From the NCBI GenBank assembly GCA_964187785.1, contig OZ076409.1, positions 34,660,001 through 34,724,000 of the forward strand: DNA of 64,000 bases, given 5' to 3'. This document shows positions 14,601 through 56,268 of this stretch, one piece after another (the first letter of the stretch is position 1; every line of letters starts with the position of its first letter). The position numbers and the translations under genes were made by a program. This DNA comes from Amphiscolops sp. MND2022. Its lineage: Eukaryota. Under the pieces are notes generated by a model. The model had not been told where the DNA came from and did not search any database. It worked only from the letters and a program-made list of their open reading frames with translations.

Positions 14601-17600
14601 ATTTGCCAGGACTCCAATTCAATGAAAAACTCCGTGTCCGACAATACGTAATATCTGATCCTTCAAACATATATTATACTGAATACTTTACCTCTCTCAA
14701 AGAAAAATCATCAGCTGACTGGCAGCAGCAGATGAAGACTCCTCCTACCTCTCATACCACTTCGGACCCTATGTCCACTAGTCTACACAATAACACTAAT
14801 ACGATACGACTTCTACCGCTTATTGACGACTACAACCCATACTACTCTGATCCAACCTATGGTTTTGACCCCTATTGGGACGCTAATTGCTACAATCAAC
14901 ATCATCTATACTTTTACTGCAATTTCAACAAACCGAGTCACTATATAGAACTAGATTCTTATGAAACTGACCAAGCCTTAAATACGACCCTTATGAAAGC
15001 CAGAGTTGACCCATGGCAACATAACACACCACCAGGATGCCAAATAAATCATACTGAGCACGACCAAGAATTTCACCCGGTGGGACCTCAGGTCGCTCTG
15101 GTTACAGCAGTTGCTGCAAGATTTGTGAACACCTTAATCACCAGATCGGGTGAACCGGACTATGTACCGCTGACAACAAATCTCGGTCTCAAATATAAAA
15201 GACGAATGCTCTATTTTCCGATTGATTTCGGCGAACTAACATTAGACGGCCTTGTAGACACGGGAGCGCTCTCTAGTGCAATCCCAGAAGCTGATCTACG
15301 TAAAATCCGATTATTAGCCCCTCAGTCGATTGTGAAAGAGGGCCCGGCGCCCAACTTCCAAATCATGGTAGCTAACGGGCAGCTGGAAACTCCAAAGAGC
15401 ACCGTCGAATTAAAGTTTGAAGTCGGAGACATTGAATTCCACGAAATATTCATAGTCATGGAAAAACTCACCAGTCCGTTGATTGGTCTTTCTTTCCTTC
15501 AACGGAACAACACCATCTTGGACATGCGACGAGGCGTCCTAAATTTTCCTTTTTTTTCAATGCAAATAAAAACTGCAGACCACAAATATACCAATGTCAT
15601 GGAACCTATTTGCATTAGGGAAGATATAATCATCCCACCTAATGACCGACACTCGGTCCTTATAGCCTCACAACTGTACGCGAACACTACAGTTACAGGG
15701 ATCCTTCAACCGAGCAACAACCTTACAGATGACGGCGATATTGCCTTCTGTGCTGCTCTAGTCACCCTGACCAATGGTCAGGTATCAGTTCACCTGAACA
15801 ACTTTACTGATAGTCCGTATACCCTCAAAACTGGTACGCAAGTAGCCACTTTCACTGTCCTCACACCAGAACAGATGAAATATGTCAAACCTATAGACCC
15901 GGTGACCACATGGCACCTCGTACAAGACAACCCTGAACACGCCGCTTATTATGCAAGTAGCCTGATCAAATCTCCTAAAAACGAGGAATCTTTTACGAGG
16001 AGAAAATTACTGGTTCCCAACACCAGAGGACCCTGGGGACCCTCAGCATCATACGCCAATCCAGAAACGAATTTTATCCGAACTTGTCAATCTTCAGGAA
16101 CTAGAAAAACTTAATCCTCAGGACGACCCTGAGTCGAGACGTCAATTCTTATCCAACTTTGATTGGACTGACTCTATGCTTCAACCTGCTGAAATAGCTC
16201 GCATAGAGGACCTACTTGTTGAATTTCATGATATCTTTGCCAGACATCGCTTCGAAATCGGTATGAACGAGGACTTCAAGATCAAATTGACACCGAAAGA
16301 TGATTCCCCGGCCTATAGTCAGAGTTTGCCAACGCCAATAAATCTCAAGGAGGATATCCTTGTAGAATTGGCCCTATTGCATCGCTATGGGATAATTACA
16401 ACACTACCATTCTCCAAATACGCGAGTCCCATTTTTGCACAAAAGAAACCCAATGGCAAACTGAGACTTCTAGTCGATTTGCGCAAAATCAACAACCTGA
16501 TCTCGGATGACTATATTAATAATAACCACCCAGTGAGTACACTTACCGACGCAGCCCAACATATGGCTGGGAAGAAGCTATTTTGCAAGTTGGACTGCTC
16601 CCAAGCATACCACTGCCTACAAATGGTGGATCAAAGGTCCATGCTTGCCTTCAATTTTGCCAGCAGAACCTTCGCGTACAGAAGACTGGCACAAGGTCTT
16701 AGTAGAGCCTTATCGGCCTTTTCTAGTTTCATGCGCGAATATTTGGATAAAGTCATCAAAGCAGACCAATGTGCCCAATACGTCGATGATATTGACATCG
16801 CTGCCAACGATGCTGAACAACTCATCAACAACCTGAGGGCCACATTCCAATGCATACAACAAGCTGGCCTCAAGCTTACGATGCATAAATGCCATTTTGG
16901 CGCAACGGAAATTGATTTTCTGGGACGCACCATCACTCCTGCTGGAGTGAAGCCACAGAGACCAATGGTCCAAAATTTCCTAGAAAATACGAAATTCCCG
17001 AAATCCAAGAAAGCACTCCAACGTTACCTGGGATTCCTCAACTATTACAGGAACTACATCCCAAGGCTCTCAGAAAAACTGACACCGTTTTTCAAATTGC
17101 TCACAAAAGATGAAAAAGTCCTGGTTACTCCGGACCTCTTGGAAAAATTCACCGAAATAAACAAGGCTCTTGACCGATGTTGTGAACTTGCGCTAAAACA
17201 ACCCTTACCGAATAAGCAAATAGCTCTTATGACAGACGCCAGCTTTTCGGCCGCAGGGTACGCGGTTCTCATCGAAGATGATCCCCTCGAGAAATATACA
17301 TCTACGAGGAAAGCATTTGCACCAGTAGCTTATGGATCCAAGACCTTTAGTCCTACCCAATTGAAAATGTCCATCTATGCAAAAGAGTTCCTAGCAATTT
17401 TCTTTGCCTTCAAGGAATTCGGACATATATTTTGGGGAACCCCGAAACCGGTGATAATACTTACAGACAACAAATCCGTCACACGATTCTTCCAGACAAA
17501 AATCATACCCCCGACTCTATGGAACGCATGTGACTATGTCATTCAGTTCAACTTCACAATTGCCCATATACCAGGCAAAAACAACACAGCCGCAGACTAC

Positions 17601-19700
17601 TTGTCTCGGCTTGAAGTCTCTCCGAAAGAGAAGCTGATCCTCAGAATCCGAGAAAACATCCCTACTACACCAATTGAACTCCACGTCCAATCGGCAGGAG
17701 TCTCGGAGGAAGAACAAATTTTTTATACCGAGGACGACGACGAGACGGAAGAACAAATTTTACAGCGCAAAAAAGACGCTAGGAACCATCCATCAAATCA
17801 ATTACCTGATATTTCCTTCGAAAAATTTACTACACACAAAAGTGACTATCACAAACTTTCCACAATTCAAAAACTATCCTACACAAACTCCCTAGCAGTC
17901 GAGCAAAACAACGACGTCATTTTACAACAATTACACCTTAAAATATTGAAGGAAAACTATTCAGAAACCATCCTAGTCCAAGACACGCGTTACCAACATT
18001 ACTGTCGCCAAATGGACCGGCTGTCCGTTATTGACGGAATCATTACAAGACAGTATTTTGACGAAACAGGAGCTGTCAAATACAATCAAGTGTTATTACC
18101 AAAACATCTGGTCCAAGATCTACTTGAATCCCTCCATGGCAAAGCTAACAAACACCCTGGAATATCCAAGATGCTCATAGAAATTCGCCAAAAATATTAC
18201 TATCCTGGCATTGCAAAGATCGTTAAAAAATGGGTGCAAGGCTGTGAAACTTGCATCAAAGATAAACGAATTCCCACCTCATCAATAACGCCCGAATTGT
18301 TAAACTTGCCCGAGTGGGACTTAGGTCCAGAGGATGCAATGCAAATTGATTTGCTTCCGAACCTGCCCCCTAGTGGCGGTTACGAAAACATCATCACTGC
18401 TATCGACGTATTTTCAAGATATCTCTTTGCATACCCGGTTACTGACGCTTCGGCTACAAGTACGGCTAAGGTCATTATAGACATAATGACCAAACATACT
18501 TACTTGCCTACCACTCTCATCACAGACAAGGGAACGGCCTTTACGTCCAAATTAGTCGCCGAAGTAGCCCAAATTCTGGGAATTCAAATAAAATGTGCAA
18601 CTACAAAACATCCGCAAACAATTGGAAAATTAGAACGCACACATGCTAGCCTTAAAGCAAATCTCAAAATGGCATCAGGTGACTATCGGCGTCAGTGGCA
18701 TAAATATCTGCCACTAGCAGTATTAAACTACAATACGACTTATCACGCCACACTGGGCTGCGAACCATCTCGAATTTTTCATGGCCGAATTCCATATAAC
18801 ATATTGGACCACAAACTTGGGATCAATCCTAACCCCAAGGTCCTTCCGACTACAGACTTTGCCGATGAATTTAAGCGGCGAGCACAAATATTAATGGATA
18901 CCACAAAGAAAAACATAATGCAGTCTTATTTGAAATACAAAGAATACTATGACCGGAAGGCTAAAGCAGCGCCCCTACAACAAAATGATTACTGCTTCAT
19001 TTTACAACCTTTAGCTGACCACCAAGGATCGAAAATTCCATTCCGAGAATACCGATGGATCGGTCCGTATGTTGTTGAAAAAGTTTTGCCGAATGGAAAT
19101 TATATAGTAAGGAAACTTAATTCGAACAAAACACAAATTCTACACCGCATTCGACTACGCAAATATGAACCGAATACAGTCCTACAAGATATTCGACCGG
19201 AAGGCAATCTGCAACCGGATGATGAAATTGTTATTCCGCAAGACGACCTTTATGTCATCACGTGGGAAACAAATTTCGGAGAATTTCCAAATTCCGCTGA
19301 CGAAACTACACTTCCGACAAGCCAAGATGGGCCACGTCATTTTAACGATCCTGGCAATGACGTCTTGGTTCCGGACGAAATTTTCACCGATGTGGACCTT
19401 AGGTCCACCGGGCCTCAGGAAAATGGCGCCAGGGCCCCAGCGGAATTCCTCAACGACGAGGACCTAGGGTCCACCGGGCCTCACCAAACCAATGACTTAG
19501 AGTCGCTCGACAAAGCCCGCTCAGATCGCATAAACGATCGGCTTGGTGACCAACAATCGTCAGGAGGGAGCGATACTATCGTGCCCGAAGTATTAGATGA
19601 TGAAACTGACATGATTGTAGAAAATGAAAGTCCTAGGGGAGGGAAATATAACCTTCGTCCTAACCCCACCCCCAACTTCACTGATGAATACAGACACTAG
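14597..19700 (+). CDS. pol: Pol polyprotein (aspartic protease, degenerate dUTPase-like segment, RT, RNase H, integrase), broken by one frameshift near 16000
   Basis: LVDTGA protease; YVDD RT; TDAS RNase H; H-x5-HPG...CETC zinc motif and D,D,E integrase core (QIDLLP, ITDKG, KLER). ORFs 14603-16114 and 16176-19700 join through ENYWFPTPEDPG... if one frameshift is assumed at ~15990-16005. Confidence 0.92.
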
Positions 19701-37269: not shown

Positions 37270-38169
37270 TTCCCCCTCTTCGGAATTATGGGAACCAGCT
37301 TTGATCTCCATTGGTTTCTTTCGGATTGTTGTTTCTTTTCTTTGTTGCATTCTCTGGGCTGCGGGGTGAAATGGATTACCGTTTTCTGGGTCTTCGGCTT
37401 TTGTTCTAAATGGTTCAATGATTATTTAAAAAAGTACTTATTCCACCCAGTTTTTCACCCTTTTGGCAGTCTTAAGTTTGCTTGATCTTCGTACCCCCTT
37501 TTCTCCCCCTATGGTTTCTGTAACTTCCACTCCCTCGATACTTAAATCTACTATACCTTTGTCTACCGATGTAGATGCTTTTGTGGAGATCCGGTTGGGG
37601 TTGTGTCGCTACTTTGACGTTACGTTGGTGCGTCCGTTCCGTGCGGCAGCCGACCGGCGATGAGACCATAGGCGTTTGGCAGTCGGGCGGTGATTCCCTA
37701 AGTTTTGTCTCTTCACCTTTGGGATATGTTGTTACATCAGTGACGGTAAGTTCTGAGTCGGCATTCACCGTCGTCGGTGCTTCCCCGGCCGTGGTGGACT
37801 GGCTGTCCGAGATTATGGTAATGTCGGGAATTTCTTCCGCTTCTCTTGCTGGCATGGTTGGGAAGGTTTTACTCGAACTTGCTTGAATATTTTGGTCATC
37901 ATGCTTCTTGTTTTCAGCCATTATCCGTTTGTGGGTTTTATATAGTTCGTCATTGCTAAAACGGCCGCATCTAGTACATCTCTTTCTTGGCTTTCTTTTT
38001 TTCTCTATTTTTTTTGACGGCTGAAATTTTAAGGGGTTAGACTCCAGTTTCTTATGAATTGTTTTTCCATCGGCCATAGTTACAGTGTGTTTAGTTCCTT
38101 TAACCGCGATTAGAATTCTATCAGTTTTAAATCTGCAATTCATTGCGTTCGGCTTGGTTTATTCGTCGA

Positions 38170-41100
38170 AAAATTGGCATTCTTTAAAATAATCGCTTAC
38201 CGATCTTCATCTCCTCCTTGATTCGTTGAACACCAACTTGTCTGCAAGTTCTCCGTCCAAATCAAGAATGGTCAGTCATGAATTCCAGTCAAACAATAGG
38301 CAAGTAGGTTGGCCATCATGTTGGTGATAGGCGTACGTGATTTTTGTCCAAAAATGCATTTGAAAAGGTATTATTTCAAATATATTTTTTCAATGTATTA
38401 AGTGGCGTTTGTCTAATAGTTTTGATTGCCACTTGGACGCTTTCTACAAAGAAATCCGTCTTCTAAACTGGCTCCAGTTAGTGATTTGATCGTGCGTATT
38501 GTTCTCTCGACCATTCCGGTTCCCGTATGCAAGTTAGGGGTACACCGTTTTCAGTTTATTATTTCGCCGTTACAGTAGTCTTTGATCTCATGGCTTTTAA
38601 AGCAGCCGCCGTTATCGGTGCGAATAGTCCGTGGTGTTCCATTATCTACACAGTATTTAGTTAAAAATTTCATTACGGTCCGTGAGTCCGTATTCTTGCA
38701 AATTTCGGTTGTTGGCCATTTACTAAAACGATCAATATCTACTAAAATATAAATGTCTCCGCGAGTTTTTAATTTGATTGGACCAGCAAAGTCCAATTGG
38801 ATTTCTTGGTTAGGTTCAGCTAAAATTTCGATTCTATTTATCTCCGTATGTGGTAATTGTGTTTTTATATTCTTACCTGCTGCTCTGCAGTCAGGACAGT
38901 TTTTTGATTTTCTCGAATCTCGCGGTGTCAGCCGGGCCACCAAAATGTTTCCACTGACTGGTCCAGTTTGTTTGTGGATACATGTACCTGATGTAAAAAC
39001 CCTATTATCGTCGACCTCATTGCCTCGGGGATAACAATTTTATCATTGTAAAATAAAACTCCGAAACGGGTTGTCAGGTGTTCCCGGTGTGGACGATACG
39101 GATACAATATATTGTCCGGTCGTCCTGCTTCAAGGGCAATTATTGCATCCAGCATTTTGGCATCTTGTGTCGTTTCTTCGACTAATAGTGGTAGATCCAT
39201 TGAGAAATCTTTCTCTGCTTTCTTTATCGTTTCTGCCGTCGTCTCATTACGGTGTTCTTGCAAAGTTTTTTGCTTAGCCGTCTGTTTCAGGCGGATGCGG
39301 TTTACGCTGTCGTGTTTCCGCAATTTTTTCAGTACTTTGGTCGGGCATTTTTCCTGCTAGATTTGACTTGTCTGGCTTTCACTGTCTGATGATGCATTGA
39401 TTCACGACTTGTGTATGTTTTCATTGTACTCTCGGAGTGGTCTTGTCCTGAAGGTTTCGCAGTATTGAAAAAAGCGATTGTATATCATGATGTTTATCTT
39501 ATCGATTTTTTTCTCCTTTGTTGGGAGGGGCGATACTCCTGTCCCAAGATTGGGGTCTAGTTCGGTTTGAGAATTTTGTTTCCTTCCTGGCGTCTTTTGT
39601 TTGTCTCGGGAGAGTGTCCTCTCTTTTAAAAGATGAACTCGATATCGATGTCGTTTACCTCGTCCATCTTCGATTTTGACGGTTAATTGTTTGCAAAATT
39701 TTCACTTTTAGCTGGTTTGATGTTGTTTTGCGGTAAGAGTGTTTGAATTGAGTGTATTAAAGAAAATACATACCACGACTTTCCGAACGACTCACAGTCA
39801 TCTTCAAAATACTGAAGGAAACCAATATATTCTACATTTCAAAAGGTCACACCACCACTTTTGAGCACCATTGTTTCTTAATTTGTTCACAAGCTCGTGC
39901 GCTGCGTCATAATTTGTCGGAATATTGTGTCGGCGTCGATCCACCGATATATTGCATAATGCTTTTCTTCGTACGATTATTTTCGAACAAACCGTATATT
40001 TATTGAACATGAATTCTTCTTCGGCCTCTTTTTCGTCGTGTACGCACCGTGTTTCTGTCTCATTGTCGTGTGTAAAAGGATGGCGGCTCAGATAATCCGT
40101 TAGTGGAATTTTCTTACGGGCGGTCTATTGTACGTTAACGTCAAAGTGGCGCAATCGGTCCAACCAGCGTGTGAGTCTTGCGCTGTACTGCTTGTGGGCC
40201 CAATTACGTTTTAGTAACAATTGTAACGCTTGATGGTCGGTTAGGAGGTTCACTTTCTCTCCGTAGACGTAATATCTAAAATATTCAAGTCCCGATGAAG
40301 CGCCCAACAGTTCTAAATTGTTTATGGCTTTTTTTTCAAAAGCGATTGGGAATCTACTAGAAAAAGCTACCGGTTTGAAAGTCTCACCCTCCATTTGCCA
40401 TAAAGTTGCCCCTACGCCTGTGTTACGTGCATCGGCTGTTATGTAGTTATCGTTTTTGCGGATCGAAATGCGCCAGGCTTTGTGCTTCAGTATTTTTTTT
40501 TGATTGTACAAAATCATCATTTACTTCTTTTGTCCACTCCAATTTTACAACTTTCTTTTATAATCTTCCTATCCTATCGGTCTTTTTGCAGAGGTTATTC
40601 AGAAGTTTTGACAAATGTAGGATTTATCCCAAGAATGATTTTTATTCTTTGGTGTTTATGGGTGCTTTCAGCTTCGTTATGGCTTCAGTTTTATCTTTGA
40701 TTGGCTTAACCTCATTCTTGGTAATTTGATACGCCAGCCAGGTTAGATCTTCTTTGAGTAGTTCCGCCTTTTTCTCCGTTCCTCGATAGCCAGCTTCTTG
40801 CAGCTTGGATAGGACATCGTACAGTTCTTGTCCATGTTCTTCTATCGTCCCGTTTGTGACGCAAATGATGTCGTCTAGCCAGACTGGTGTTTTGATTTCT
40901 GGGACCATGTCTATATGCTCTTGAAACAGGGGTATCCGATTGGCCGTAAACGCCTTTCTTGAATCGGTAATTTCTCGTAAAGTCACCGCCAAAATTTAAA
41001 AACACAATGTCTTGACGCCTTTATGGATATTTTTGCCTATCCGTAGGCGTAGTCTAAGTCAATTTTGGACATGCATTTTTCGCCGTTGCTTTTTGTAATC

Positions 41101-41810
41101 TTTTCAGGTTTTTTACTGGTTAGTTGTTTCATATTTGTCATTGTCGTTTTTCTCTTTATGCATGATTTGTTCACTTTTCGGGAATCCAATGCATATTTTA
41201 CCGACTCGTCTTTTTTGATTGTTATCACTGCCAGTGGTACGAAACAGTCTTCTGTCGTTTTGTCGGCTTTTTCTACATGTCCTTTTTCAATCAATTTTTC
41301 CAGTTCGTTATTCACTATTTTTTGAAAATGGATAGGTACTGGCCTCCCTTTATGTTGTATCGACTTGGCGTGTTTGTTCAATTGATTGTCTATAGTTAGG
41401 TCTTTTATTGTGTGGTTCTTTCTATAAAAGTTTTCAAATTCTTCGAAAAGTTTCTCACCTCTTCCGTTGGCGGTTATGATCCGGATGACATTCGTCTCGC
41501 GGTTACCTTGTAGATCAATCTTCAGTTTGTCTTGCAAGTCCTGTCCCAGCAGAGGTCGTGTGTTTTCCTTTTCTGTGATTAATATTGGCAGTGTCACTTT
41601 GTTTCTTTCCGTTTTGACTTCCACCAAGGCTTCACCTATGAATTATTTTGGACTTTTGTTTACGTCAACAAAGCACATTGAAGTCGCCTTGATGTCTTTT
41701 GGAATAATAATGGGCGGGATTATTGTTACTGGAGAACCAGTGTCAATAGTGAATTCTATTGGTTGTCCCCCCATCAATAGTATTGCTTTGAAGAAGTCTA
41801 CGCAATGAAT
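38170..41810 (-). pseudogene. pol: Fragmented pol (PR, RT, RNase H, integrase)
   Basis: FTIDTGSPV (PR), KIDLDYAY and WLDDII (RT), ITADARNTG...LLTDHQAL (RNase H), FWWPG/CPDC and IQLDFAGP...IRTDNG (IN), spread over many frames. Boundaries approximate. Confidence 0.88.
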
Positions 41811-41899
41811 GCCGTTGACGGACTGGATATGGTCTATCTCCGGCCAAGACTCCCTGTTGCCGCCGGTATGTTCTTCCTGTATCCGACTTACTGTTTTCG

Positions 41900-42710
41900 A
41901 ATCGGCATACGTTTGCAAAATGTCCAGATTTTTGCAGTTGTTGCATTTAGGCTCCCGTTCCGAGCAGATGTGTTCGGGTGTCCAATTTGACTTCCTGCAG
42001 AAATGACAATTTCGTTCCAAGTTTTTCTGTTTGTTGGTAAATGTAGCTTTCTTCTTCGGTGCTGGTTTAGTGTATCCGACTTGTTCGTCTTCGGATGTGC
42101 TTTCGAAGTAATTTTTCCGCTGTCTATTGGATTTGGTTTGTTCGTCTCCGTATTTGTGGTTCTAGTTATCTAGCTCTATTATTTCAAGTTTTAGCTGTAG
42201 TTTCCATGGACCTTTAATGAATTTGTTGCGGGCCTTCTTGTCATTTAGTGATGCCGCAACTTTGTAGGTGATGATATCTTCCGGTGTGATGGTGTTGAGT
42301 TCGCACTTCCTTTGGATGTCTACTAGTCTCTTCCAGTATTCATCTAGGGTCTCATTGTCTTCTTGTTTGATGTTGAAGAATTGGGCTCTACTATGGAATA
42401 CATTTCTTGTGGGTAAAAAAGGTTTCAACAGTTTCAACAGTTCTTGTATACTGATGTCCTTGAGCTCTTTTCCCCATTGGCCTCTCATGATCTCGTGTTT
42501 TGGCTCTGGGGCCAATTCCCATATAACATCGCCTTTGATGTGATATGTTGTATGTGGGTCCATGGAGTCAAATCCCTGTTCTATCAGTTTTTCTATTTTC
42601 TTCTGATATGTCAGGTCGATATATTCCGATATCTGCTCCCACCACATTTTGGGGTTGATTTTTGATACGTTGTTTTCCACATTTTCCGTTGTTGATGTTC
42701 GTATTGTCCA
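41900..42710 (-). pseudogene. gag: Decayed gag
   Basis: RAQFFNIKQEDNETLDEYWKRL capsid-like motif and Zn-knuckle remnants (CHFCRK..H.C, CNNCK). Boundaries approximate. Confidence 0.8.
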
Positions 42711-44790: not shown

Positions 44791-46747
44791 GGTTGGAACT
44801 GCTTGAACTTTTTACATGTTTTTAGTCGGCGCCTTTTCCCTTAAGTTTTTTTTAGTCGGCGCCTTTTCCCTTAAGGAAAAAAGCCCGACTCTTACAGTGA
44901 GTAGTTTTTTTTTTTGTTTTTTTCAGTTGACAATCTCACTCTGAGTGGTCCACTTTTCTTACAATTTTCATATATTTTTGAAAATCTCTTCATAATGGCG
45001 CAAACGTTTGCAACGTCTTTTTACATCATCTAAAAAGCTCCACGGTACCTAAGGGTACTCCCTTTGAGTACTTTTCGGCACTGTGAGACTTTTTTTCGAA
45101 AATTTTCAAATGTTACCAAAGTGTCCTTTTTTTGATTTTTAAATATTTTCAGTAACCGTAAGCCGGTTTTCGTGTCCAAAGAGTCCCCCCTTTGAGTTTT
45201 TCGGCACTGTGCGACTTTTCACAATGTTATGAAAAACACTTCGAATTGTATCAACTGTAAAAAATATTGACTGTTACTGATTGTTTACTTAATATTGTTA
45301 TTGACTGTTAGCTGTTGTAGTTCGTTCAGGGGGCATTGGTCCCAAGCACGCCAGAACGAACGAATCCGGGTGTGGCAGACCCAACTGACCAACTGGTGGT
45401 TGCTCTATAAATTTTTGGAGGTGTAGCAGTCGTCACCCTAGGAAGCAACGTCCTTCCTAGACCAAGCACGGCTGGTCCCTTTGAGGATTTTTAGAGCTCG
45501 GGTGGCACCGTTTTGCGTCCCAACTTTATGCGCAGGGGGTCCGCATACTGTTTGGACGCAAAATGCTGTCACCTTATATGCCCGGCTTTTGTTCTTAAGC
45601 TTAGATACCATCCGTGACAACTGATCTCCAAAGAGATGTTGTCGGGAGCTCGGGTGACCCCTCTTCGAAGCTTTCTGCTTGGACGTTAGGATCTCGAAAA
45701 ATTTCTTTGAAAGGTAATTGAGATCAATGATTTTGAGCTTTTTTGGGAAGTATATAGAAAACCTGAAGCACCGGGAATTGATTCTAGCATCGAATATACT
45801 GTCCATTAGCAGATAGATTCGAAGGCCCAACTCAGTATGCTGTCGTCTGGGCCCTCTTCCCAGAACGGCATCGCTGCTGAAGGGCTCCAAGGATGGTCTC
45901 TCCGCACTCATTTGGTGCGGAGTAGGCGTTTCCGTGGTTCAAAAATGTAAAAAAAAGGCCACCTCCCCTTGAAGTTTTTTGCCAGAATCCAAAAATCTTA
46001 GCCACAGGAAGCCCCATATTGGAACCCTGATGATCGGCCTAAACATTTAACAGCTGAAATGATCCAAAGGAATAGCATTCGATCCTAAATTCCAATCTGC
46101 AATAATTCATTTAAAACAAATATATCCTCAATATTTGGAGCTTAAACATTTCAAATAATTTTCTATAGAGTTTCATCAACTTTCGATTTCACTCGCTTGT
46201 GTGTCTTTGTCAGCTTTACTTAGCACTCACTGTGCCCTAACCTGGGGTTTTTAAAATGGTTTATGGTTTTCCTTTGTATTCATGGTTTGATGAATTTGTA
46301 ATTTTACTGCTCAGTGAGTTACTAATTATGGATCAATTGAATATTTTGTCTCAGTGTTTTCAAAGACGATGTTTTAAATAAATGGAGCCATTGACGTTTT
46401 TTTACCTCGCGATGTTTTTCGAATAATTATTCGTATTTTCCAAGGTTTCTGTACTGCGAAAATTCGTTGATCGCTTGTCGAAGTTTTTTGACTATCAAAC
46501 CAGCAGTTCACAAATGTATACTTTAACAATATACTTTCGTCAATTCTCTATAACGTTGTTCGGATGGCTTCCTGCTGTTTTTTTGCGGTGCGCTCTTTTG
46601 ACAATCTATTAATCCAAGAACGATATGGATTTTTACTTGAAGCATTTATGTCATTTAATATGCTTTTGTGCTCGCTTGTCTTCTTGGTTTTTAACTGTTC
46701 GTTTCAAACAACAAGTTGTTGTATGTTGACTTTTTTCAGTGTCTGGA

Positions 46748-47860
46748 ATGTCAATCGATTCTAAACTACTGCCTCTGCTCGATAATTCTCTTGAAGAAAT
46801 TCAAACAATTCATGATATTCTTTTCTCCGTCAAATCTTCCTTTTCCAGTGCTATCATGGAAAGACCGTCATGCTCCAACACGAAGGATGTCCCTCGGCTG
46901 TTTGATGGAGAGAAAGTCCTTCTGACAGGTATAGATCGAGCCCTTCTCCATGCCAAAAATACAGCTGCAATCATAAATGCGCAACGCAAGGATGTGCTCG
47001 CTACAGTCAAATCAGCTGAGCGGTCCCATGCTAATTATGTCACTGCATTGCAGAGATTAGCGAAGGCGAGAAACTGCAATCGCCCCTCTGCGACACCCAA
47101 GTTTTCCGGATCTTCTAAACGCCTTCAGAAAAATACCAACATAGTCGGTTCCTGTTACAGAGACCTACTTCCTCGTAAACTCAGCTCAATGAAAACTCGA
47201 ACCTCATCAATACAAGTCTACCCCCCTGCAACCAAAACCTTTGCAGCGTCACCAAGTAGTGCTCCGAGATTTCCAATCACTTCGAGCAACCTTTCATCAG
47301 TGTTGCCTACTTCGAGTTTCCAGTGTACATCTGCACAACCCACTAGAGCCATTCGGCACGGTATCAATGCAAATCCGAAGACCACTGCAAACCCTGAAAA
47401 CTGTCAAAAGTCGGGAAAGAAATCGAAGAAAGAAAAACAGCGTGCAGCTCCGCGCGTTTCATCTTCCAAAACTGTTGATATGAGCTCCATACCCTCTATG
47501 ACTGGAAGTTCTCTAGACGAAATAATCGCAAACATTCCTATTGAAGACGGACAAACTGAGCAATTTATGATTGACTCAGACAAGTTTCCTCTTCCTTCCG
47601 CGAACATGAAGTCACCCAACGCAAAGATCTCGCTGAAGGAAGAAACAGTGGATAGTATCTTTGGAGATTCACTTCCTGAAGTTGACATCGACTCCGTGGC
47701 TCCTGGTAAGCAGCGCTCTGAATCTGGCTCTCAGAAGATGACAATGAACCGGGAAAACAAGCAAACGATGGCTATAGCCTCAACGAGGAAGTCAAAACGA
47801 GCTGTCGCACTTGCTGGTGCTGTATATAACGAGGAGTTTCCGAGTGATAATGAATTGTGA
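46748..47860 (+). CDS. Helentron ORF1 (~370 aa): coiled-coil-like N-terminus, Ser/Lys-rich disordered C-terminus, unknown function
   Basis: Long uninterrupted ORF preceded by a TTTTTTCAG acceptor at ~46739; inside the element, upstream of Rep-Hel and on the same strand. Confidence 0.65.
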   Translation: MSIDSKLLPLLDNSLEEIQTIHDILFSVKSSFSSAIMERPSCSNTKDVPRLFDGEKVLLTGIDRALLHAKNTAAIINAQRKDVLATVKSAERSHANYVTALQRLAKARNCNRPSATPKFSGSSKRLQKNTNIVGSCYRDLLPRKLSSMKTRTSSIQVYPPATKTFAASPSSAPRFPITSSNLSSVLPTSSFQCTSAQPTRAIRHGINANPKTTANPENCQKSGKKSKKEKQRAAPRVSSSKTVDMSSIPSMTGSSLDEIIANIPIEDGQTEQFMIDSDKFPLPSANMKSPNAKISLKEETVDSIFGDSLPEVDIDSVAPGKQRSESGSQKMTMNRENKQTMAIASTRKSKRAVALAGAVYNEEFPSDNEL

Positions 47861-48422
47861 TTGCACAGCTGCAACATGTTCAAACTCAGACCATACTTCC
47901 AGCATGTTTTTCGAGCATGTTTGATTCCTTTTCAGCAATACTCCTTTGTCTTAACTGCGTTCGTTATGCAGAGATTTTTAGCATCGTTTTCTCGAAATGT
48001 TACTCGTGATTTCAGTATGGCTATGAGCTTATAGTGTCAAAACGTTCTCATTTAATCATAGTTTTGTTTGTTTGTGCCTATACTATTGATTTGATTGCCC
48101 TAGTTTTCGTTCAGCTTATTTTTTGTTCTTATACCAATAATTTGTTCCTGAAGTTATCCCGACTTGAAGAACATCGAACGATTTGCGTCATCAGTATCTA
48201 TTGAATTAGCTTCCCCGTAATGTCATTTAGTTATCAAGGTTTATTTGATCAGTTGTGTGTTTATTCAATTTGATACGTCTCTTTGATAATTTTGTTCATT
48301 GAATACCTTTATATCGGCTTACGTTTTTTATAGACTCTTGGAGCGTTGAAGTCGAATGAAGTTTGAATACGAAGATACTCGTGAAGCTTTTATTTTGCAA
48401 CCTTTTCACTTTTTTCAGGTCG

Positions 48423-51400
48423 ATGATTAATTTACCCCAAGAAGCTCTCCGAATACTTATCGATATTGCCAGTTCAAATCTTAACGACCAAGGTAATCAT
48501 GTGGAAACACTTGCTTTTTTACTTGCCATCAAAGAGGATGTGGATATTTACACAATCACAGATGTCATCCTTCCTACTCAAACAAGTAGTGGAGTGTTTG
48601 TTGAAGATCATGGCGTCAATAATCAGGATTCTGCTGCTTTTTTGCACAATCTATGTAATCAAGTTCCAACTAAATTTGTAATCGGCTGGTTCCATACACA
48701 TGTCCGTGGTACACCATTGATGCTGAGTGCTGTTGATTGTCATACTCAGTTCTTGTACGAAACAGCAGTGTTCAATGGAGTCAAAGCTTTTGTGTTGCAT
48801 CTGCCGTCCCGGTCCCTTGAATGCTATCAATTGACTGAAACCGGTTTGAATGCTTTACGTTTGTGTACGCTTCAGTACCCCTGGAAGGCAACCATCCAGC
48901 ACCCCGAATGCTTTCAGTCTTCATTTTATTTCTCCTTGAAACATCTTCTGAAAATTGGAGACACTTCTGTTACATTTATTGATGCCACAGAAAGCAAGCC
49001 TTTTTCTCAACCACTTGGCACTTACGAAAAGTTTCTATGTGGCAGTAAACTTCCGACAACCAAAGTCTTGGAAAGCTGTCAACCTTCCTCCATTAATCAG
49101 ACACCTGATTGCGCCTTAAAATGCATTTCTTGCGGAAAATCATTCCGAGATCTTCGAAAAAAGCGCAAGCATCTCAGCAGAACCAAATGTATTGAATCCG
49201 TCGCATCTAACAATGCACTTTCCCAGCCTGTTCCACCTGTCGACCCCGTGAAATATCTCGAACAGCCTTGTGTGGGTTGTTCAACAATTTTCCAGAATCA
49301 AAAAGAGGCTTTTCAGCATTTCTCTCGAAGCGCTTGTAGGACTTTGTACAAGACAGTTCTAGCACAGAGAAAGCGATTGAAAAAGCAAATTTATGACAGA
49401 GCTAGAACTGAAAAAGACATTCGACAACCACGATCTGTCAAAATGATGACCAGTATTAGAAATAAAACTCAGTATGAAAAAAATCGGATGAGGTTGAAGA
49501 GAAAGTATGTTGTTTCGTTGAAAGATAAGTTGAAGAAGAAGTACCAAGATAAATTCAAGGAACAATTGAGATTGAAATACCTAATCCATTGCAAGGAAAT
49601 TCGGAGGATGAAATATCAAGAAACCTTGCAGAGCAAATTGAAAAAAAAGTATCAAATGGATCTGAAGGAAGCACTCAGCCATAAGTACCGTCACGGATTG
49701 AAGGAGAAACTTCGTGTCAAATACCAGACGAAGTTGGAGGAATCTCTAAAAGTGAAATATCATGCTCTATTGAAGGAACCTTTGAGAAGGAAATACCAGA
49801 CTTCTTTGAAGGAACCTCTGAAACTGAAATACCAGACTTCGTTGAAGGAACCTCTGAAACTGAAATACCAGACTTCGTTGAAGGAACCTCTGAAAATGAA
49901 ATACCAGACTTCTTTGAAGGAACCTCTGAAATTGAAATACCGCGCTTCATTGGAGGAGCCTTTGAAAATAAAATACCAGGCTTCATTGAAGGAGCCTCTC
50001 CGGATCAAGTATCAGGAATGTCTGAGAGAGCCCCTTCGCATTAAGTACCAGGAGTCAATCAAAGAACTTTCCCAACTGAAATATCGAGTCAAAAAGTCCA
50101 CGAAGACGTTTGGTGAACTTTTGAATGAATTCCGTCGAGGTATGTGTTTGGGCCTAACTTTTGAATGTATCTGCTGCGAACGAGTACTCTTCGAAAATGG
50201 TGTTGTTAAATTGTCCGAAAGCGCCTTTTCCCGACTTGACAAGCAATTAATTGCAAGAAGCATCAATTCTGAACTTCTTTCCGGTCCAAAGTTTTTGTGT
50301 CACTGCTGCCATCGAAATTTACAAAAGGGTGAATTACCGAGCATGTCTGCTCAAAATAGTCTGACAATCGAGTCAATTCCTGAAGAACTTAAACTATCAG
50401 ATTTTGAAATGCAACTGATTGCTAAAGACCTTTTGTTCATGAAAATTTTCAATTTGCCGAAGTCACGCATGCCAGCGGTTAAGGACAAAGTTATAAATGT
50501 GCCTTTAACGCATACTGATCTTGAAAATACAACAAAAATTCTTCCACGTAACTTAGACGATTCGCTGCTAGTCAACGTGCAATTCAAGCGATGCAAAGAT
50601 TTCAAAAATGTTCATTCAGAAGCGCTTGTGCGTCCGCACTTGTTGCTCAAGGCACTAGCGTGGCTGCAATCCAGCGGAAATCTTTTCTACAATGATGTTG
50701 TCCTGAATGAAAAGTTTTATCTGGACGAAACTGCCCTTTTTGCAACCGATGAGCAGCCGGAAGACGACCAGGAAGCAGCTCAAACGAAAAACGAAGATAA
50801 CTTGGACACATGTCTCATTCCTCAGAACTCGGCTGCTCACGTGATTTCGAATTATGGTGTTGTCCGCAGAGTTGTCTCGGAAACTATTGTTGTCGCTCCA
50901 GGAGAGAACAAACTTCCGACGAACTGGTTGGCTAATGTGGACTTCGAAGCCAAGTCCTTTCCTTGCTTTTTCCCGTCCGGAAAATTTACATTGAGTGATA
51001 CCCGGGAGGTGAGAATTAGTTCGCAGCAATATTTCAGTCAGAGAATTATGAACAAAAACCCTCGTTTCGCTGAAGACAGTAGCTATTTGTTTGCTGCTCA
51101 GCAGCGAGTAGAAAGAGAACAACTGGAACGACAATGCAATATTTTTTTTCGCAAAGGGAAAACAGAACGTTTGGATAATGACACCGTCAAAGTAAGCCAA
51201 GATGACATACAAACAGTCTTTCAGCGAATTCGTGGAACTAGTCAATACTGGAGGGTCGCTCGTAATGAATTAATTGCAAAAGTTAAGCAGCTCGGTCCTT
51301 TCCAGTACTTTTTCACGCTCTCATGTGCTGAAATGAGGTGGTCCGAGGTTTTCGCGACGATTCTGAAATCACAAGGACATACAATCAGCATTGAAACCAA

Positions 51401-54400
51401 GTTTGACCCAAATGGTAATAATTTTCGAGTACTTGTCGGTGACGTGCCATTGGAACTGTTTCTGGAATCCCAACCCATCGAAAGAGTTACTGTCCTACAA
51501 CAGTTTGTCGTACATGTTACGAGGATATTCAACAATAGAGTTCAAACTTTCATTCAAAAAATAGTAATGTCAAAGTACGAAGGCTGCTTGCCGGTTTTAT
51601 TTTATTCATACCGTGTTGAAATGCAATTACGAGGAATGGCCCATATTCATGGCTGCTTGTGGTTGGATGAAGCGTTTTTGCGTGATTGTAGCTTTTTGAG
51701 TGAACAACAGTTAATCACCAATCTCATTGACAATTTCATCACTTGTGCATTGCCACCTGAGGCGGATCCCTTGCGGCAAGTTGTTCAAGAAGTTCAAACC
51801 CATCATCATACGAAATCGTGTACGAAGAAATCTTCCTCGTGCAGGTTCGGCTTCCCTAAGTTCCCTTCAGAAGTGACTTTGATAGCTCAGCAACCGGATT
51901 CCGAAGATGAGAAGTCCATTGAACAGGGTCGTCAGGTACTACAAAAAGCGAAAAGTTTATTACATGGTCCTAATCCGCCACTCACTTTCGAAGATTTCTA
52001 CGAACAGCTGAACGTCTCTCGCGAAGTGTATCATTCCGCGCTCTCAATATCTTCAAGAGGAAAAATCGTCATCCTCAAACGGAACCTCAATGAATTGTAT
52101 ATCAACAATTATAATTCAAAGTGGCTAACGGCGTGGAACGGGAACATGGATCTCCAGTTTTGTTGCGACCCCTATGCCGTGGTTACGTATATTTGTGACT
52201 ACTACTCGAAGGATGAGACAGGCCTCACCGATGTTCTCAAGCAAACTGTCAAACAACTGGACGAGCGTCAATCACCATACGACATGCTCAAAATTCTGAA
52301 AAGTGTGTATCTTAATCATCGGCAGATTGGAGCTTGCGAGGCGACATATAGACTTCTGAAAAGTTTGCATTTAAAAGACTCAAACATAACTACAGTCTTC
52401 TTAACCACTGGTTTTCCGGAAAATAGGTATCGTTTCTTGAAATGGACAGAGGAACAGGATCCTCAGAATGAGGCTGTACAGATAGAAGGACGAGAACGAT
52501 CTTACTTGTGGACCATGACGATACATGAGAAGTACAGCAAACGGCCTTCTGCCCTCATTGACATGTGTTTAGCAGAATTTGTGATCAACTATAAGACTAT
52601 GCCCTCAGATAAAGTGCCAAACGAAAACGAATTGTCGCAAAGTAAACATGGTTTGCCACTTTTTGTTGTTTTGAACGATAACGCTGGAGTGATGCGTTTG
52701 CGGGAAATTCCATGTGTTTTGCGATTACATGAGTCCAAAAAGAAGACGGAAAACCACGAGTTTGTTTACTCTGAGTGCTTACTATACTTTCCATGGAAAA
52801 ATGAAGATGAGCTGCACCGATATTCATCCGAGGATTCCATCAAATTATACCATGACAATCGAGAAGTGATCGTCAAAAATAAGTGCAAAATTTTCCCCTT
52901 TTCGCAAGAAAATGAACTAATTGAAGAATGTCTCACTTCTGTTGACACAACTGCTCACCTACCTGTCCATATTGGTGACACTCTAGATCCTCAAGGTGAG
53001 CAAATGAACGATGACGAATTGGATGAGCTCCTGAACCCTGAATTCAGCAACAGACATCCCGGATCCTTCTCCGCTAATGAGACTTCTGTTTCACGTAGTA
53101 CACTGCCAACGATAAAGATTCTGCAACCGACGGAAATCAGACAATGTATTCGATCGTTACATGAAGAGCAGCGCAAAGTTTTTGATGTGATTGCACATTT
53201 CGTCCATCAGTTCTTGCGTGGTGGCAACCCAACGCCTCCACTGTTTATCGTCCAAGGAGAAGCAGGCACTGGAAAGACCAAACTCATCAATACAGTTATG
53301 AACTATGTCTCATCTATTTTAGCTGGTGGTGGTTCGCAACTTGACAAACCAAAAGCGCTGGTCGTCGCTCCGACCGGAATGGCTGCTTCGCTCGTGAACG
53401 GAAGTACATTACATTCAACGTTTCAACTTAATTTTGGCGATGAACTCACCAATCTTGCTGATAGTTCACTCGACAAATTGAGGTCCACATTGGAAGATCT
53501 AGTCATACTGATTGTCGATGAAATTAGTATGGTACGTTCGGACCTCTTCTACCAACTTCACGAGAGGCTTCAATCAGTGAAACAAAACGATCGCGTTTTC
53601 GGGGGTGTTTCCGTGCTGCTTTTTGGCGACCTCCTGCAGCTCAAGCCTGTTCGCGGTCATTTCATTTTTCAACAACCACGAGCTCAAAGATATGCCGAGT
53701 ACTATGACTTTTTCAATCTCTGGATGCAGTTTCAGTCTGTCGTCCTCCAAGCTAATCATCGGTTAGGTATTAACATTTCACTAGTATTTAAATGTGTACT
53801 GCCTTTTCTTTTACCTATACTGTGTTTTAGGCAGAAAGGTGATTGCAAATGGATAGAAACCCTGCAGCGTGTAAGGACTGCTTCGCTAACTGAAGATGAC
53901 CATACCCTTTTATCATCTCTACAAGTACCTGACAACAAGCTTTCCCTAGCACCAGACGCTACCCGGATATTTTACACGAATGCCGAAGTGGATTCTTACA
54001 ATAATGAGAAGCTGAATAGTTTACCTGGACAAATGTTTGTTTCTAAGTCTGTAGTTACCTCTCCAGTCGGATGTCGACCAAAAATAACGCGTGGGAAAAT
54101 TGATGACACGGCTTTTAATGACTTGGTCAGTTTGAAAGTGGGATCTCGCGTGATGTTGATCTATAATGTAGATGTCAAAGATGGCCTAACCAACGGCCAG
54201 TTGGGAACAATTGTGGACATCATTTCCTCTGACTCGTGTCGAATTGATTGTGTGCTAGTTAGTTTCGATGACAAGAACGTCGGTACCTCTCTTGCCCACC
54301 AGTACCCGCAATTTCAAAAGACTTACCCGGGGGCTGTTCCGATTTTCAAAACTTTCGTATCCTACCAGCTTGGTGGAAAAAGTCAACATGGTGCCCGCTC

Positions 54401-55274
54401 ACATTTGCTACAACTCCCCCTCCGCCTCGCTTGGGCTCTAACTTGCCATAAAGTACAGGGTCAAACTTTTCCTTCTGGACAAAAAATAATTATCAAATGG
54501 GATCGAAGTCTACAACCTGGAATGGCATACGTCATGCTTAGCCGGGCCAAAAGTATGTCGGACATTTCAATAACAGGCGACTTCTCTTCACGACAAATAA
54601 GATGTAATGCTGAGGCCAAGCTAATGTGCGAATTTCTGCAGCTTCCCGAAAGGTCAGCAACATCTACCGCAAACATTTTCATGAACAGTTCTAAGCTGAG
54701 ATTTTGTTGCCTAAATATCCAGTCTTTAAATGCCAATATTGAAGATCTTAAGGCAGATTATCTCATCAATTCTTGTGACTATCTTCTGCTGACTGAAACC
54801 TGGCTAGAGATGAGTCAACCAGTTCCTGACTTGCAGACTAGATTTTTGAAATCCAAACATTTGAAGGAAGGCAGAGGGCGAGGTTTAAGTGTTTATTCGA
54901 ATCATACAAACTGCGAAATACAACTTCATAACTCAATGATCAAAATTCTTCTAATGGCTGCGAATTTCTCAGTTATTGGAGTCTATAGAAACCATCAATG
55001 TCCTTTCTCATTTTTCCTGTATAACTTGCAAAACTGTATCACCGATGAAACTGCTATCATCATGGGAGATTTCAACTACCCGGACTCAACTCGCATTGGA
55101 GGCTTCCTTGAAAAGCTCGGCTTCAGGCAGCTTGTCGCTTCGCCCACGCATTGTGCAGGCAACAAACTCGATCTCTGTTTCGTGAGATTTATTGACGTCT
55201 CACTATTTCTTCATCCTTGCTACTATTCCCATCACGATTGTATTTGTTTAACTGTCAATAGCATCGAGTCCTAA
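48423..55274 (+). CDS. Helentron polyprotein: JAMM/MPN+ protease, C2H2-like Zn fingers, 12-aa repeats, HUH Rep, PIF1 helicase, AP-type (EEP) endonuclease; one 69-bp intron
   Basis: ETLAFL...GWFHTHVRGTPLMLSAVD (JAMM); RVEMQLRGMAHIHGCLW and YICDYYSK (HUH/Y2); GEAGTGKT, DEISMV, FGDLLQL, TCHKVQGQT, YVMLSR (PIF1); LNIQSL, LTETWL, MGDFN, LDLCF, YSHHD (EEP). The ATG follows an acceptor at 48418. Confidence 0.93.
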   Translation: MINLPQEALRILIDIASSNLNDQGNHVETLAFLLAIKEDVDIYTITDVILPTQTSSGVFVEDHGVNNQDSAAFLHNLCNQVPTKFVIGWFHTHVRGTPLMLSAVDCHTQFLYETAVFNGVKAFVLHLPSRSLECYQLTETGLNALRLCTLQYPWKATIQHPECFQSSFYFSLKHLLKIGDTSVTFIDATESKPFSQPLGTYEKFLCGSKLPTTKVLESCQPSSINQTPDCALKCISCGKSFRDLRKKRKHLSRTKCIESVASNNALSQPVPPVDPVKYLEQPCVGCSTIFQNQKEAFQHFSRSACRTLYKTVLAQRKRLKKQIYDRARTEKDIRQPRSVKMMTSIRNKTQYEKNRMRLKRKYVVSLKDKLKKKYQDKFKEQLRLKYLIHCKEIRRMKYQETLQSKLKKKYQMDLKEALSHKYRHGLKEKLRVKYQTKLEESLKVKYHALLKEPLRRKYQTSLKEPLKLKYQTSLKEPLKLKYQTSLKEPLKMKYQTSLKEPLKLKYRASLEEPLKIKYQASLKEPLRIKYQECLREPLRIKYQESIKELSQLKYRVKKSTKTFGELLNEFRRGMCLGLTFECICCERVLFENGVVKLSESAFSRLDKQLIARSINSELLSGPKFLCHCCHRNLQKGELPSMSAQNSLTIESIPEELKLSDFEMQLIAKDLLFMKIFNLPKSRMPAVKDKVINVPLTHTDLENTTKILPRNLDDSLLVNVQFKRCKDFKNVHSEALVRPHLLLKALAWLQSSGNLFYNDVVLNEKFYLDETALFATDEQPEDDQEAAQTKNEDNLDTCLIPQNSAAHVISNYGVVRRVVSETIVVAPGENKLPTNWLANVDFEAKSFPCFFPSGKFTLSDTREVRISSQQYFSQRIMNKNPRFAEDSSYLFAAQQRVEREQLERQCNIFFRKGKTERLDNDTVKVSQDDIQTVFQRIRGTSQYWRVARNELIAKVKQLGPFQYFFTLSCAEMRWSEVFATILKSQGHTISIETKFDPNGNNFRVLVGDVPLELFLESQPIERVTVLQQFVVHVTRIFNNRVQTFIQKIVMSKYEGCLPVLFYSYRVEMQLRGMAHIHGCLWLDEAFLRDCSFLSEQQLITNLIDNFITCALPPEADPLRQVVQEVQTHHHTKSCTKKSSSCRFGFPKFPSEVTLIAQQPDSEDEKSIEQGRQVLQKAKSLLHGPNPPLTFEDFYEQLNVSREVYHSALSISSRGKIVILKRNLNELYINNYNSKWLTAWNGNMDLQFCCDPYAVVTYICDYYSKDETGLTDVLKQTVKQLDERQSPYDMLKILKSVYLNHRQIGACEATYRLLKSLHLKDSNITTVFLTTGFPENRYRFLKWTEEQDPQNEAVQIEGRERSYLWTMTIHEKYSKRPSALIDMCLAEFVINYKTMPSDKVPNENELSQSKHGLPLFVVLNDNAGVMRLREIPCVLRLHESKKKTENHEFVYSECLLYFPWKNEDELHRYSSEDSIKLYHDNREVIVKNKCKIFPFSQENELIEECLTSVDTTAHLPVHIGDTLDPQGEQMNDDELDELLNPEFSNRHPGSFSANETSVSRSTLPTIKILQPTEIRQCIRSLHEEQRKVFDVIAHFVHQFLRGGNPTPPLFIVQGEAGTGKTKLINTVMNYVSSILAGGGSQLDKPKALVVAPTGMAASLVNGSTLHSTFQLNFGDELTNLADSSLDKLRSTLEDLVILIVDEISMVRSDLFYQLHERLQSVKQNDRVFGGVSVLLFGDLLQLKPVRGHFIFQQPRAQRYAEYYDFFNLWMQFQSVVLQANHRLGINISLVFKCVLPFLLPILCFRQKGDCKWIETLQRVRTASLTEDDHTLLSSLQVPDNKLSLAPDATRIFYTNAEVDSYNNEKLNSLPGQMFVSKSVVTSPVGCRPKITRGKIDDTAFNDLVSLKVGSRVMLIYNVDVKDGLTNGQLGTIVDIISSDSCRIDCVLVSFDDKNVGTSLAHQYPQFQKTYPGAVPIFKTFVSYQLGGKSQHGARSHLLQLPLRLAWALTCHKVQGQTFPSGQKIIIKWDRSLQPGMAYVMLSRAKSMSDISITGDFSSRQIRCNAEAKLMCEFLQLPERSATSTANIFMNSSKLRFCCLNIQSLNANIEDLKADYLINSCDYLLLTETWLEMSQPVPDLQTRFLKSKHLKEGRGRGLSVYSNHTNCEIQLHNSMIKILLMAANFSVIGVYRNHQCPFSFFLYNLQNCITDETAIIMGDFNYPDSTRIGGFLEKLGFRQLVASPTHCAGNKLDLCFVRFIDVSLFLHPCYYSHHDCICLTVNSIES
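49500..50090 (+). repeat. Coding 36-bp minisatellite (12-aa LKEPLKLKYQTS repeats)
   Basis: About 8 close copies at ~49770-50060, with more diverged KY-x10 units upstream. Confidence 0.9.
53762..53830 (+). other. 69-bp in-frame GT-AG intron in the helicase
   Basis: CG|GTTAGG...TGTTTTAG|G; removal restores the PIF1 motif NHRQ and deletes a hydrophobic 23-aa insert. Confidence 0.85.
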
Positions 55275-55482
55275 TCTTCATCTTTTCTTTGTTATGTTAA
55301 GGATGTTAAATGTTGATTTATTTGAAGTTTGTTTTAAATGTCCAGTTTTCGAATTCAATTTTGTTTACAGAATTTTTTGTGTAGAAACTCGGTGAAGCAT
55401 CTGTTACACGAATAGAATAACAGTCATATCAAGTGTTTCAAGTTCTTAGCCGAGAGTGTAACCCGCATTTTAGTTTGGATTT

Positions 55483-55580
55483 AACTTTTCAAAGTTGGGA
55501 TGTAACCTTTTCAAAGTTCGGTTGTAACAATATAACGTTTTCAAAGTTTGGATATAACGTTTTCAAAGTTCGAATATAAT
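55483..55580. repeat. Short ~20-bp tandem repeats (AAC.TTTTCAAAGTT.G.AT) in the Helentron 3' region
   Basis: Four TTTTCAAAGTT units are visible. Confidence 0.75.
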
Positions 55581-55799
55581 GTTTCCCTTGGATGTGCATT
55601 TTTTGAAGTTTTCGATTTGTAAAAAACGTTTAATGAGCCTAAATGACCTGTTTTGTGTTTTTCGGCATCATGCGACTTTTTTTATCAAATACTTTTTGAG
55701 GGTAAAAATTAATTTTTCCAAGTGTTTCCAATCGTTGTTCTTTGAATCATTTTGACCCTAATATATGGCGCCGACTTGGGACGTTCCCGTCTTGTTTCC

Positions 55800-56268
55800 T
55801 TTTCAGTTGACAATCTCACTCTGAGTGGTCCACTTTTCTTACATTCTTTGTTCATTTGTTCAACTAATTTTCTGAGAAGCAGGAGATCGTGGGTTCGATT
55901 CTCGCACTAAACCACAAATTTTTTTATGCTTCCAAAAGTAGATGGGAGACCGAATTTTTTTTTTCGTTTGGTGTTTTTCGTTTGGTTTTTTTGTTTGGTT
56001 TTTTTTCGGCACTATGCGACTTTTTTTCGAAAATTTTCGGATTCTGTCAAAGGGTACCCCCTTGCATTTTTTGAAGTTTTCGGTTTGTAAAAACGTTTAA
56101 TGAGCCTGAATGGCCTCTTTTTGAGTTTTTTGGCATTGTGCGACTTGAAAATTTTTTTCGAAAAATTTTCAAAAACATTTTTTTTGAAAAAAAAAACTAA
56201 TTTTTTGCAAATGTTTCCAATAGTTGTTCCTTGAACATTTTTGAGCCTTAGATATGGCGCCGACTTGA
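55800..56268 (+). mobile_element. HINE-like copy in tandem immediately after the autonomous Helentron
   Basis: Starts TTTTCAGTTGACAATCTCACTCTGAGTGGTCCACTTTTCTTACA (same as ~44920-44963); 56064-56145 resembles 55596-55680; ends GGCGCCGACTTG. Confidence 0.8.

Follow-up and report, generated by a model that had tools for sequence, protein, structure and literature searches.

An AMSH-related JAMM metalloprotease domain at the N-terminus of a Helentron transposase

What is a metalloprotease-like domain doing at the very start of a Helentron transposase, and is it a working part of the element that carries it? The question is raised by an intact HLE2 Helentron of about 10.95 kb at 44849-55797 (+) of the window, that is, of the whole 64,000-nucleotide stretch of Amphiscolops sp. 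MND2022 DNA analyzed here. The element is bounded by T-runs, and other copies share its ends: in all seven other close copies fetched, which are 91-99.7% identical over the 5' part, the start falls at the same base (44849) with unrelated flanks, and three of the seven end at 55796-55797, two go on through a related short element as far as about 56267, the similarity of one breaks off at 55775, and one extends past the fetched stretch. At the 5' end (44854-44890, +), a subterminal inverted repeat (subTIR; 44854-44863) is followed by a nested short inverted repeat (44881-44890) forming a hairpin (fold -11.1 kcal/mol), and the 3' end (55767-55797, +) consists of the partner subTIR (55767-55776), a short hairpin (55778-55788), and terminal Ts. 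The subTIR pair is perfect over 10 bp, and T-bounded ends recur among dispersed copies. These subTIRs, 3' hairpin, and T-bounded ends are those of an HLE2 element, and the layout fits the published description of Helentrons/DINE-1 (PMC4067079). A subTIR pattern search of diverged subfamilies found none at their 5' ends and nothing interpretable at their 3' ends. Immediately upstream, part of the element's 5' end is duplicated (44819-44845), and a short related non-autonomous element, a piece common to two other copies, lies immediately downstream (55798-56267). Elsewhere, the window holds LTR retrotransposon ORFs (gag, protease, RT, RNase H, and integrase; 12798-19700), with a weak dUTPase match in the same interval (E 3.7e-4, below cut-off), and a second, degraded LTR retrotransposon with several short frames, recognized by eye from its translations (37472-42710, -).

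The transposase occupies a 2304-codon frame (48360-55274, +), whose first ATG at 48423 gives a 2283-residue ORF (48423-55274) beginning MINLP...HVETLAFL...VIGWFHTHVRGTPLMLSAVDCHTQ. The copy on C10 likewise has the 2304-codon frame without interruption, which points to recent transposition. As had been claimed from the letters alone for the zinc fingers, Rep, PIF1, and endonuclease, this one frame joins a JAMM/MPN+ domain (residues 1-190, 48423-48992, +; Pfam, profile, and AF2 model) to everything that follows on the same strand: two CxxC...H...C zinc-finger-like motifs read from the sequence (residues 234-305, 49122-49337), basic LKxxL(K/R)xKYQ helical repeats read in the same way (49470-50100), DUF6570 (residues 635-763, 50325-50711; Pfam 8.5e-13), an HUH Rep with HIH at 51642 and YxxxYxxxY at 52173 (51039-52202; Pfam Helitron_like_N 4.3e-17), a PIF1 helicase with its Walker A at 53256 (53157-54554; Pfam 3.3e-25), and an AP-type endonuclease domain that runs to the stop codon (54711-55274). 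The zinc-finger region has a Pfam C2H2 match in the relative P0011 only, and the endonuclease match (Exo_endo_phos, E 0.001) falls below the Pfam cut-off with the N, E, GDFN, and SHH motifs all present; with that qualification, the Rep (HUH and Tyr), PIF1, and C-terminal AP endonuclease core is also that of an HLE2 element. From JAMM to the start of Rep, a single frame is kept in the diverged copies L046-L049. PIF1 contains a 69-nt GT-AG intron (53762-53830, +), which this copy reads through in frame; the intron's position is constant and its length and sequence vary among other subfamilies, splicing gives NHRQ, and the spliced transposase is predicted to have 2260 residues.

Is the JAMM domain the true N-terminus? 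A conserved acceptor-like site, a pyrimidine tract with CAG, lies 4 nt before its ATG (48402-48418, +), and a pyrimidine tract plus AG is found 0-4 nt upstream of the start codon in all 18 copies printed. Four copies (L054, L057, L066, and L070) carry an in-frame stop directly 5' of the ATG. These stops place the true N-terminus at JAMM and led us to reject a candidate coding exon joined to it from upstream. Upstream lies ORF1 (46748-47860, +), of 370 residues from its ATG and with no known domain, whose N-terminal block, SSLD..IA.LP motif, and basic-acidic tail are conserved across subfamilies; an ESM Atlas search with it returned nothing useful. Its ATG is likewise preceded by an acceptor-like TTTTCAG (46748-47860; L115-L124), and the two ORFs may be resolved via alternative acceptors or trans-splicing.

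The N-terminal domain is an AMSH-related, transposon-specific JAMM/MPN+ zinc-protease domain. The Pfam JAB model passes its cut-off on residues 1-200 (25.0 vs 22.5 bits, E 1.7e-5) and scores 21.2 bits, below that cut-off, on the full protein. The top PDB sequence matches are AMSH-LP/AMSH (3e-6), and a profile (A2) built from 70 transposon-family rows and zero AMSH-like rows has AMSH-LP as its top match (1.7e-25), ahead of Rpn11 (2e-9) and CSN5 (about 1e-5 to 7e-7). An AF2 model (pLDDT 95) has AMSH-LP/AMSH as its top Foldseek matches and aligns with Sst2 at Z 19.6 (rmsd 2.6, 170 residues), followed by Prp8 at 16.6, a fold match that is partly circular because the input alignment (A1) contained 12 AMSH-like rows. 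The MPN fold is thus recovered by Pfam, profile, AF2, and Foldseek, and the resemblance to AMSH/STAMBP noted in the original prediction is confirmed. Rpn11, CSN5, and BRCC36 share the MPN+ fold and catalytic motif, but their matches are much weaker (E 2e-9 to 5e-4 vs 1.7e-25; Z 13-15 vs 19.6), and they are complex-dependent, whereas the transposon element has no partner MPN- domain. A viral fold library gave only distant MPN/JAB matches (best E 4.9e-7), so a viral donor is not indicated, and an ESM Atlas search with the domain returned generic JAB clusters only.

The E, HxH, S, and D residues claimed for the domain are at E28 (codon at 48504), H91 (48693), H93 (48699), S102 (48726), and D105 (48735), and zinc-dependent isopeptidase activity would act through E28, H91, H93, and D105. 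Among 86 family rows, S102 is conserved in 84, D105 in 85, H107 in all 86, and E28 in 41 of 46 (five gaps); these rows were pre-selected by an H[ST]H motif, so that the invariance of H91 and H93 among them is built in. A second zinc site is predicted at H107, C148 (80/83), H160 (78/81), and C163 (77/80). By alignment and AMSH-LP ligand numbering, the family presumably retains three of the ligands and has Cys in place of the final His. With this zinc site in Ins-2, its fourth ligand predicted to be Cys, and a catalytic domain nearer to AMSH than to other JAMMs, the domain most resembles the AMSH subfamily, sharing with AMSH/STAMBP, AMSH-LP, and S. pombe Sst2 the E-HxH-S-D residues, Ins-1 and Ins-2, the second-zinc His/Cys/His, and the W and Y of the ubiquitin-tail pocket. 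It differs from them in being about 24% identical, fused to a transposase, and free of an SH3-binding region, in having V-x-G in place of Pro, and in ending Ins-2 with a predicted Cys ligand (HxxC) where AMSH has His (HxH). The MIT (USP8_dimer) and STAM-binding regions of AMSH are absent, and JAMM begins at the first Met.

The published motif, ExnHxHx7Sx2D, has seven residues between the HxH and the Ser (PMC9313428). That spacing is absent from the transposase and from 78 library relatives, all of which have eight, as the claim of one extra residue had it; the AF2 model accommodates the residue as a one-residue loop insertion at pLDDT 97-98. A HMMER search of 1.84 billion representatives gave 137 matches to the domain (a word-index search of the long proteins for residues 1-200 had none, though the full HMMER search matched), of which 79 have the x8 spacer (78 of the HxH-V/T type and one AMSH-like), 27 are x7 HxH-P, and 31 were unmatched by the pattern. 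By this measure, the transposon JAMMs are a family in their own right, set off from host AMSH by the additional residue (HxH-V-x-G with an x8 spacer; 78 library clusters). The phylogeny against host AMSH called for by the original prediction points the same way: in a quick tree of 112 rows, 81 family rows lie on one side of a branch (SH-aLRT 94), and on the other are the AMSH-like rows, host AMSH, and Rpn11, a partial, long-branch sequence and the sole outgroup. Origin of the family from AMSH is the best reading of this tree, which is not rooted well enough to prove ancestry. Host AMSH itself lies in pieces at C5:48863752, as a distinct gene whose motif is of the canonical x7 form. Only nine of the 137 matches, scattered across the tree, have DUF6570 or Rep similarity downstream, most of the others being short fragments with no context beyond the domain. 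Many family members score below Pfam cut-offs and may hence have been overlooked in surveys. Three library proteins (P0025, P0031, and P0037) pair a JAMM of this family with C2H2 zinc fingers where Rep would otherwise follow and are possibly derived or domesticated genes; P0008 and P0049 were discarded as ankyrin-repeat false positives.

What else occupies this position in related transposases? With the Rep core as query, 49 long proteins were retrieved, 22 of which were left aside as probably truncated (fewer than 250 residues before DUF6570, or DUF6570 missing). The 27 with a long N-terminus comprise 13 with OTU, seven with JAMM, four with VTD, one with USP, and two with no recognized domain, so that 25 of the 27 carry a deubiquitinase (DUB)-type domain; the OTU and VTD profiles were built from this same set, with Pfam checks added. 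One of the four VTD proteins also has a precomputed OTU match, and none of the 27 combines JAMM with OTU or with VTD: JAMM and the cysteine DUBs are mutually exclusive in this slot. One of the two proteins tallied as having none, P0167, has no Pfam or PDB match at its N-terminus. Its residues 1-140 hold His, Asp, Gln, and Cys in what we take to be the order of CE-clan proteases. The five closest Rep relatives all have JAMM, and the same family also heads Rep-Hel proteins merely 40-47% identical in Rep. The original prediction had this lineage acquiring an unrelated deubiquitinase at the N-terminus; the fusion and the convergence with OTU on one slot stand, and confinement to this lineage does not, given those distant Reps, which make the acquisition both older and more widespread. 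Among 20 other Helitron-like loci of the same genome, none has JAMM; upstream of DUF6570-Rep, a UCH/USP domain is found in L096, L100, and L102 and an OTU in L101, and 16 of the 20 had no Pfam DUB in the part of their ORFs that was scanned, so a DUB need not be obligatory. L106 (C1:73780234-73790233) and many similar loci at C1 73-76 Mb form a Helitron-like family, apparently young and densely clustered, whose frames are intact, run to about 2376 codons, and encode a GIY-YIG domain at the C-terminus.

The slot also appears to have changed hands. On the Rep tree, 14 JAMM rows fall together (SH-aLRT 94), P0145 lies in a neighboring group, and P0172 lies within an OTU-rich clade. Monophyly of all 16 JAMM rows is rejected (p-AU 1e-57) in a test that used a quick tree with no mixture model and a hypothesis set after the tree was seen. 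From just past the protease, P0172 (JAMM) and P0174 (OTU) are 65% identical over 1816 residues, and the Rep of P0172 is 70% identical to that of P0174 and 39% to that of the JAMM-bearing P0017. Six of the nine members of the P0172 cluster are full-length, which makes a one-off chimera unlikely. On these comparisons, the pair reads as a domain exchange on one Rep backbone, probably with JAMM replacing OTU.

We give a probability of about 0.66 to the reading that this transposon-specific, AMSH-related JAMM works as a deubiquitinase, clearing host ubiquitin off the transposase or off proteins where transposition takes place, in the slot otherwise held by OTU, VTD, or USP. The transposase would thus carry its own DUB, acting presumably in cis and removing ubiquitin from itself or nearby proteins, with a linkage preference that may have been relaxed by remodeling of Ins-2. 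In its favor, three zebrafish Helentron VTD domains are proven DUBs that cleave K48, K63, and partly K11 chains, and protection from proteasomal degradation has been suggested for them (PMC9741609). The benefit here may be similar, namely protection from ubiquitin-dependent degradation while Rep is DNA-bound, which is the least certain step. W89, which is invariant, and Y112 (Tyr in 47 of 86 family rows) correspond to W345 and Y367 of the AMSH-type ubiquitin-tail pocket, where residue 73 of ubiquitin sits (PMC8449267). A predicted complex with host ubiquitin scored 0.39 against 0.00 for the best control (contact agreement of at least 66%, partner pLDDT of at least 82), and the pass mark is one that 51 of 78 solved pairs reached, as did 2 of 108 mismatched ones; scores of 0.60 or less cover 5 of the 78 solved pairs and all four passing mismatches, and such passes are often wrong or remembered. 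This offers weak support for a JAMM-ubiquitin complex, and memory of AMSH-ubiquitin structures may explain the score. Taken with the pocket residues, we would predict an enzyme that binds the ubiquitin tail with an altered linkage preference, since Ins-2 is remodeled.

That remodeling bears on the alternative that the domain is an AMSH-like K63-specific DUB dampening DNA-damage or endosomal K63 signaling, which we consider unlikely. AMSH is the nearest relative, the Ins-2 zinc site is apparently kept (H107/C148/H160/C163), and W89 and Y112 match the W345/Y367 pocket, all as this alternative would have it. In AMSH, however, Ins-2 is held by the second zinc and sets K63 specificity together with its Phe (PMC4822132, PMC9313428), a residue required for that specificity (PMC4822132), and the corresponding column in the family is Gln in 56 of 81 rows and Phe in 13 (Phe in 20 of 26 AMSH-like rows), with Gln159 in the window protein. 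Ahead of the SSxD motif, where 28 of 29 AMSH-like rows have Phe, the transposon family mostly has Gly or Cys, the loop after the HxH is lengthened and has lost its Pro, and the Ins-1 helix is longer than that of AMSH and different. The K63 chains proposed as target by the original prediction have therefore lost ground.

NEDD8 and further ubiquitin-like proteins are also among the substrates of JAMM enzymes. Because of that, and because Ins-1 is unlike that of AMSH, ubiquitin as the substrate is an assignment made from context. An isopeptidase for NEDD8 or SUMO, for example one that deneddylates cullin ligases and so blocks degradation indirectly, ranks next and is likewise improbable. NEDD8 substrates are among those that two Helentron VTDs cut (PMC9741609), Helitron-like elements with C48/Ulp1 domains have been reported (PMC11417382), and the distal binding region here is unlike AMSH's, but CSN5 falls far below AMSH in the profile ranking, and OTU, with 13 of 27, is the most frequent other occupant of the slot.

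Self-processing, in which the domain would cut the transposase polyprotein, is very unlikely. It has been proposed for the Helentron OTU (PMC4067079), and the N-terminal placement of the domain and its poorly conserved linker would suit it, but there is no Gly-Gly site to cut: none occurs in the first 700 residues of the window protein (P0001), P0017, P0172, or P0020, and in the other five of nine proteins checked Gly-Gly occurs only before the JAMM motif. Pfam also finds no ubiquitin-like domain in the transposase, which leaves the earlier suggestion of polyprotein processing unsupported.

The same domain is widespread and constrained within the genome. At least 63 matches to the JAMM transposase were found, and among 32 JAMM loci taken from the best of these, 30 lead into Rep (the exceptions are L059 and L068). 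Across 23 genomic copies, H91 and H93 are kept in all 23, S102 in 22, and E28 and D105 in 21 each, the two copies lacking E28 having misaligned or frameshifted starts; one subfamily (L049, L061) has Gly at A103. In 21 pairs of seven subfamily representatives, pN is 0.17-0.37 and pS 0.67-0.85 for JAMM, and in the six pairs with unsaturated dS, dN/dS is 0.08-0.13, similar to the 0.10 of DUF6570 and the 0.12-0.19 of the endonuclease. The JAMM domain is under purifying selection and is not a recent passenger in the transposase. Helitrons do capture gene fragments (PMC11417382), but an inert fragment of host AMSH is scarcely credible with a dN/dS of about 0.1, a fusion that recurs in distant elements, and a host AMSH that is a separate x7 gene grouping with AMSH-like rows and not with the transposon family.

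HUH Rep enzymes form a covalent tyrosine-DNA bond. That bond, together with the activation of SPRTN by ubiquitylation of DNA-protein crosslinks (10.1101/2024.11.26.625192), motivates a crosslink-protection reading. In a broader proposal, which we hold only tentatively, the slot in DUF6570-type Helentrons would be a counter-defense module cycling through at least four unrelated DUB chemistries (OTU, VTD, USP, and JAMM) by swapping and would de-ubiquitinate the covalent Rep-DNA intermediate, keeping it from destruction by the proteolysis of DNA-protein crosslinks that ubiquitin triggers in the host, and the JAMM family would make up an extensive lineage of stand-alone, non-K63 metallo-DUBs from which JAMM-zinc-finger genes have also sprung.

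How much of this is new? The element resembles protease-bearing HLE2 Helentrons in its class, its termini, its DUF6570-Rep-PIF1-endonuclease core, and the N-terminal position of its protease. OTU, VTD (Herpes_teg_N), UCH, and C48 protease domains have been reported in Helentrons, and that different DUB classes can supply the activity is a published idea (PMC9741609; PMC11417382; PMC4067079). The convergence claimed by the original prediction thus holds for JAMM and OTU in one slot and is not itself a new idea, VTD and UCH/C48 proteases having already been found in Helentrons (PMC9741609, PMC11417382). The reported Helentron proteases are all cysteine proteases, unlike the zinc metalloprotease here, and the direct JAMM/OTU exchange on one backbone likewise sets our data apart. 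The architecture was claimed to be undescribed, and we found no description of JAMM, MPN, or JAB in Helitrons in the openly accessible full-text literature; PMC9741609 has "JAMM" once, in the introduction, and the HELIANO text and supplement list OTU, UCH, C48, and Herpes_teg_N with no JAB or MPN entry (PMC11417382). It is apparently the metalloprotease class that is new, DUB convergence in Helentrons being already known.

With this domain, a metalloprotease joins the list of transposon-borne DUB domains. That a backbone 65% identical in two elements bears JAMM in one and OTU in the other speaks strongly, on comparative grounds, for Helentrons needing the activity over any particular fold, and the swap points to a putative ubiquitin-based host restriction of rolling-circle transposition. 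The family itself is a set of small, apparently stand-alone JAMMs with a remodeled active-site loop and Ins-2, suited to studying the evolution of linkage specificity.
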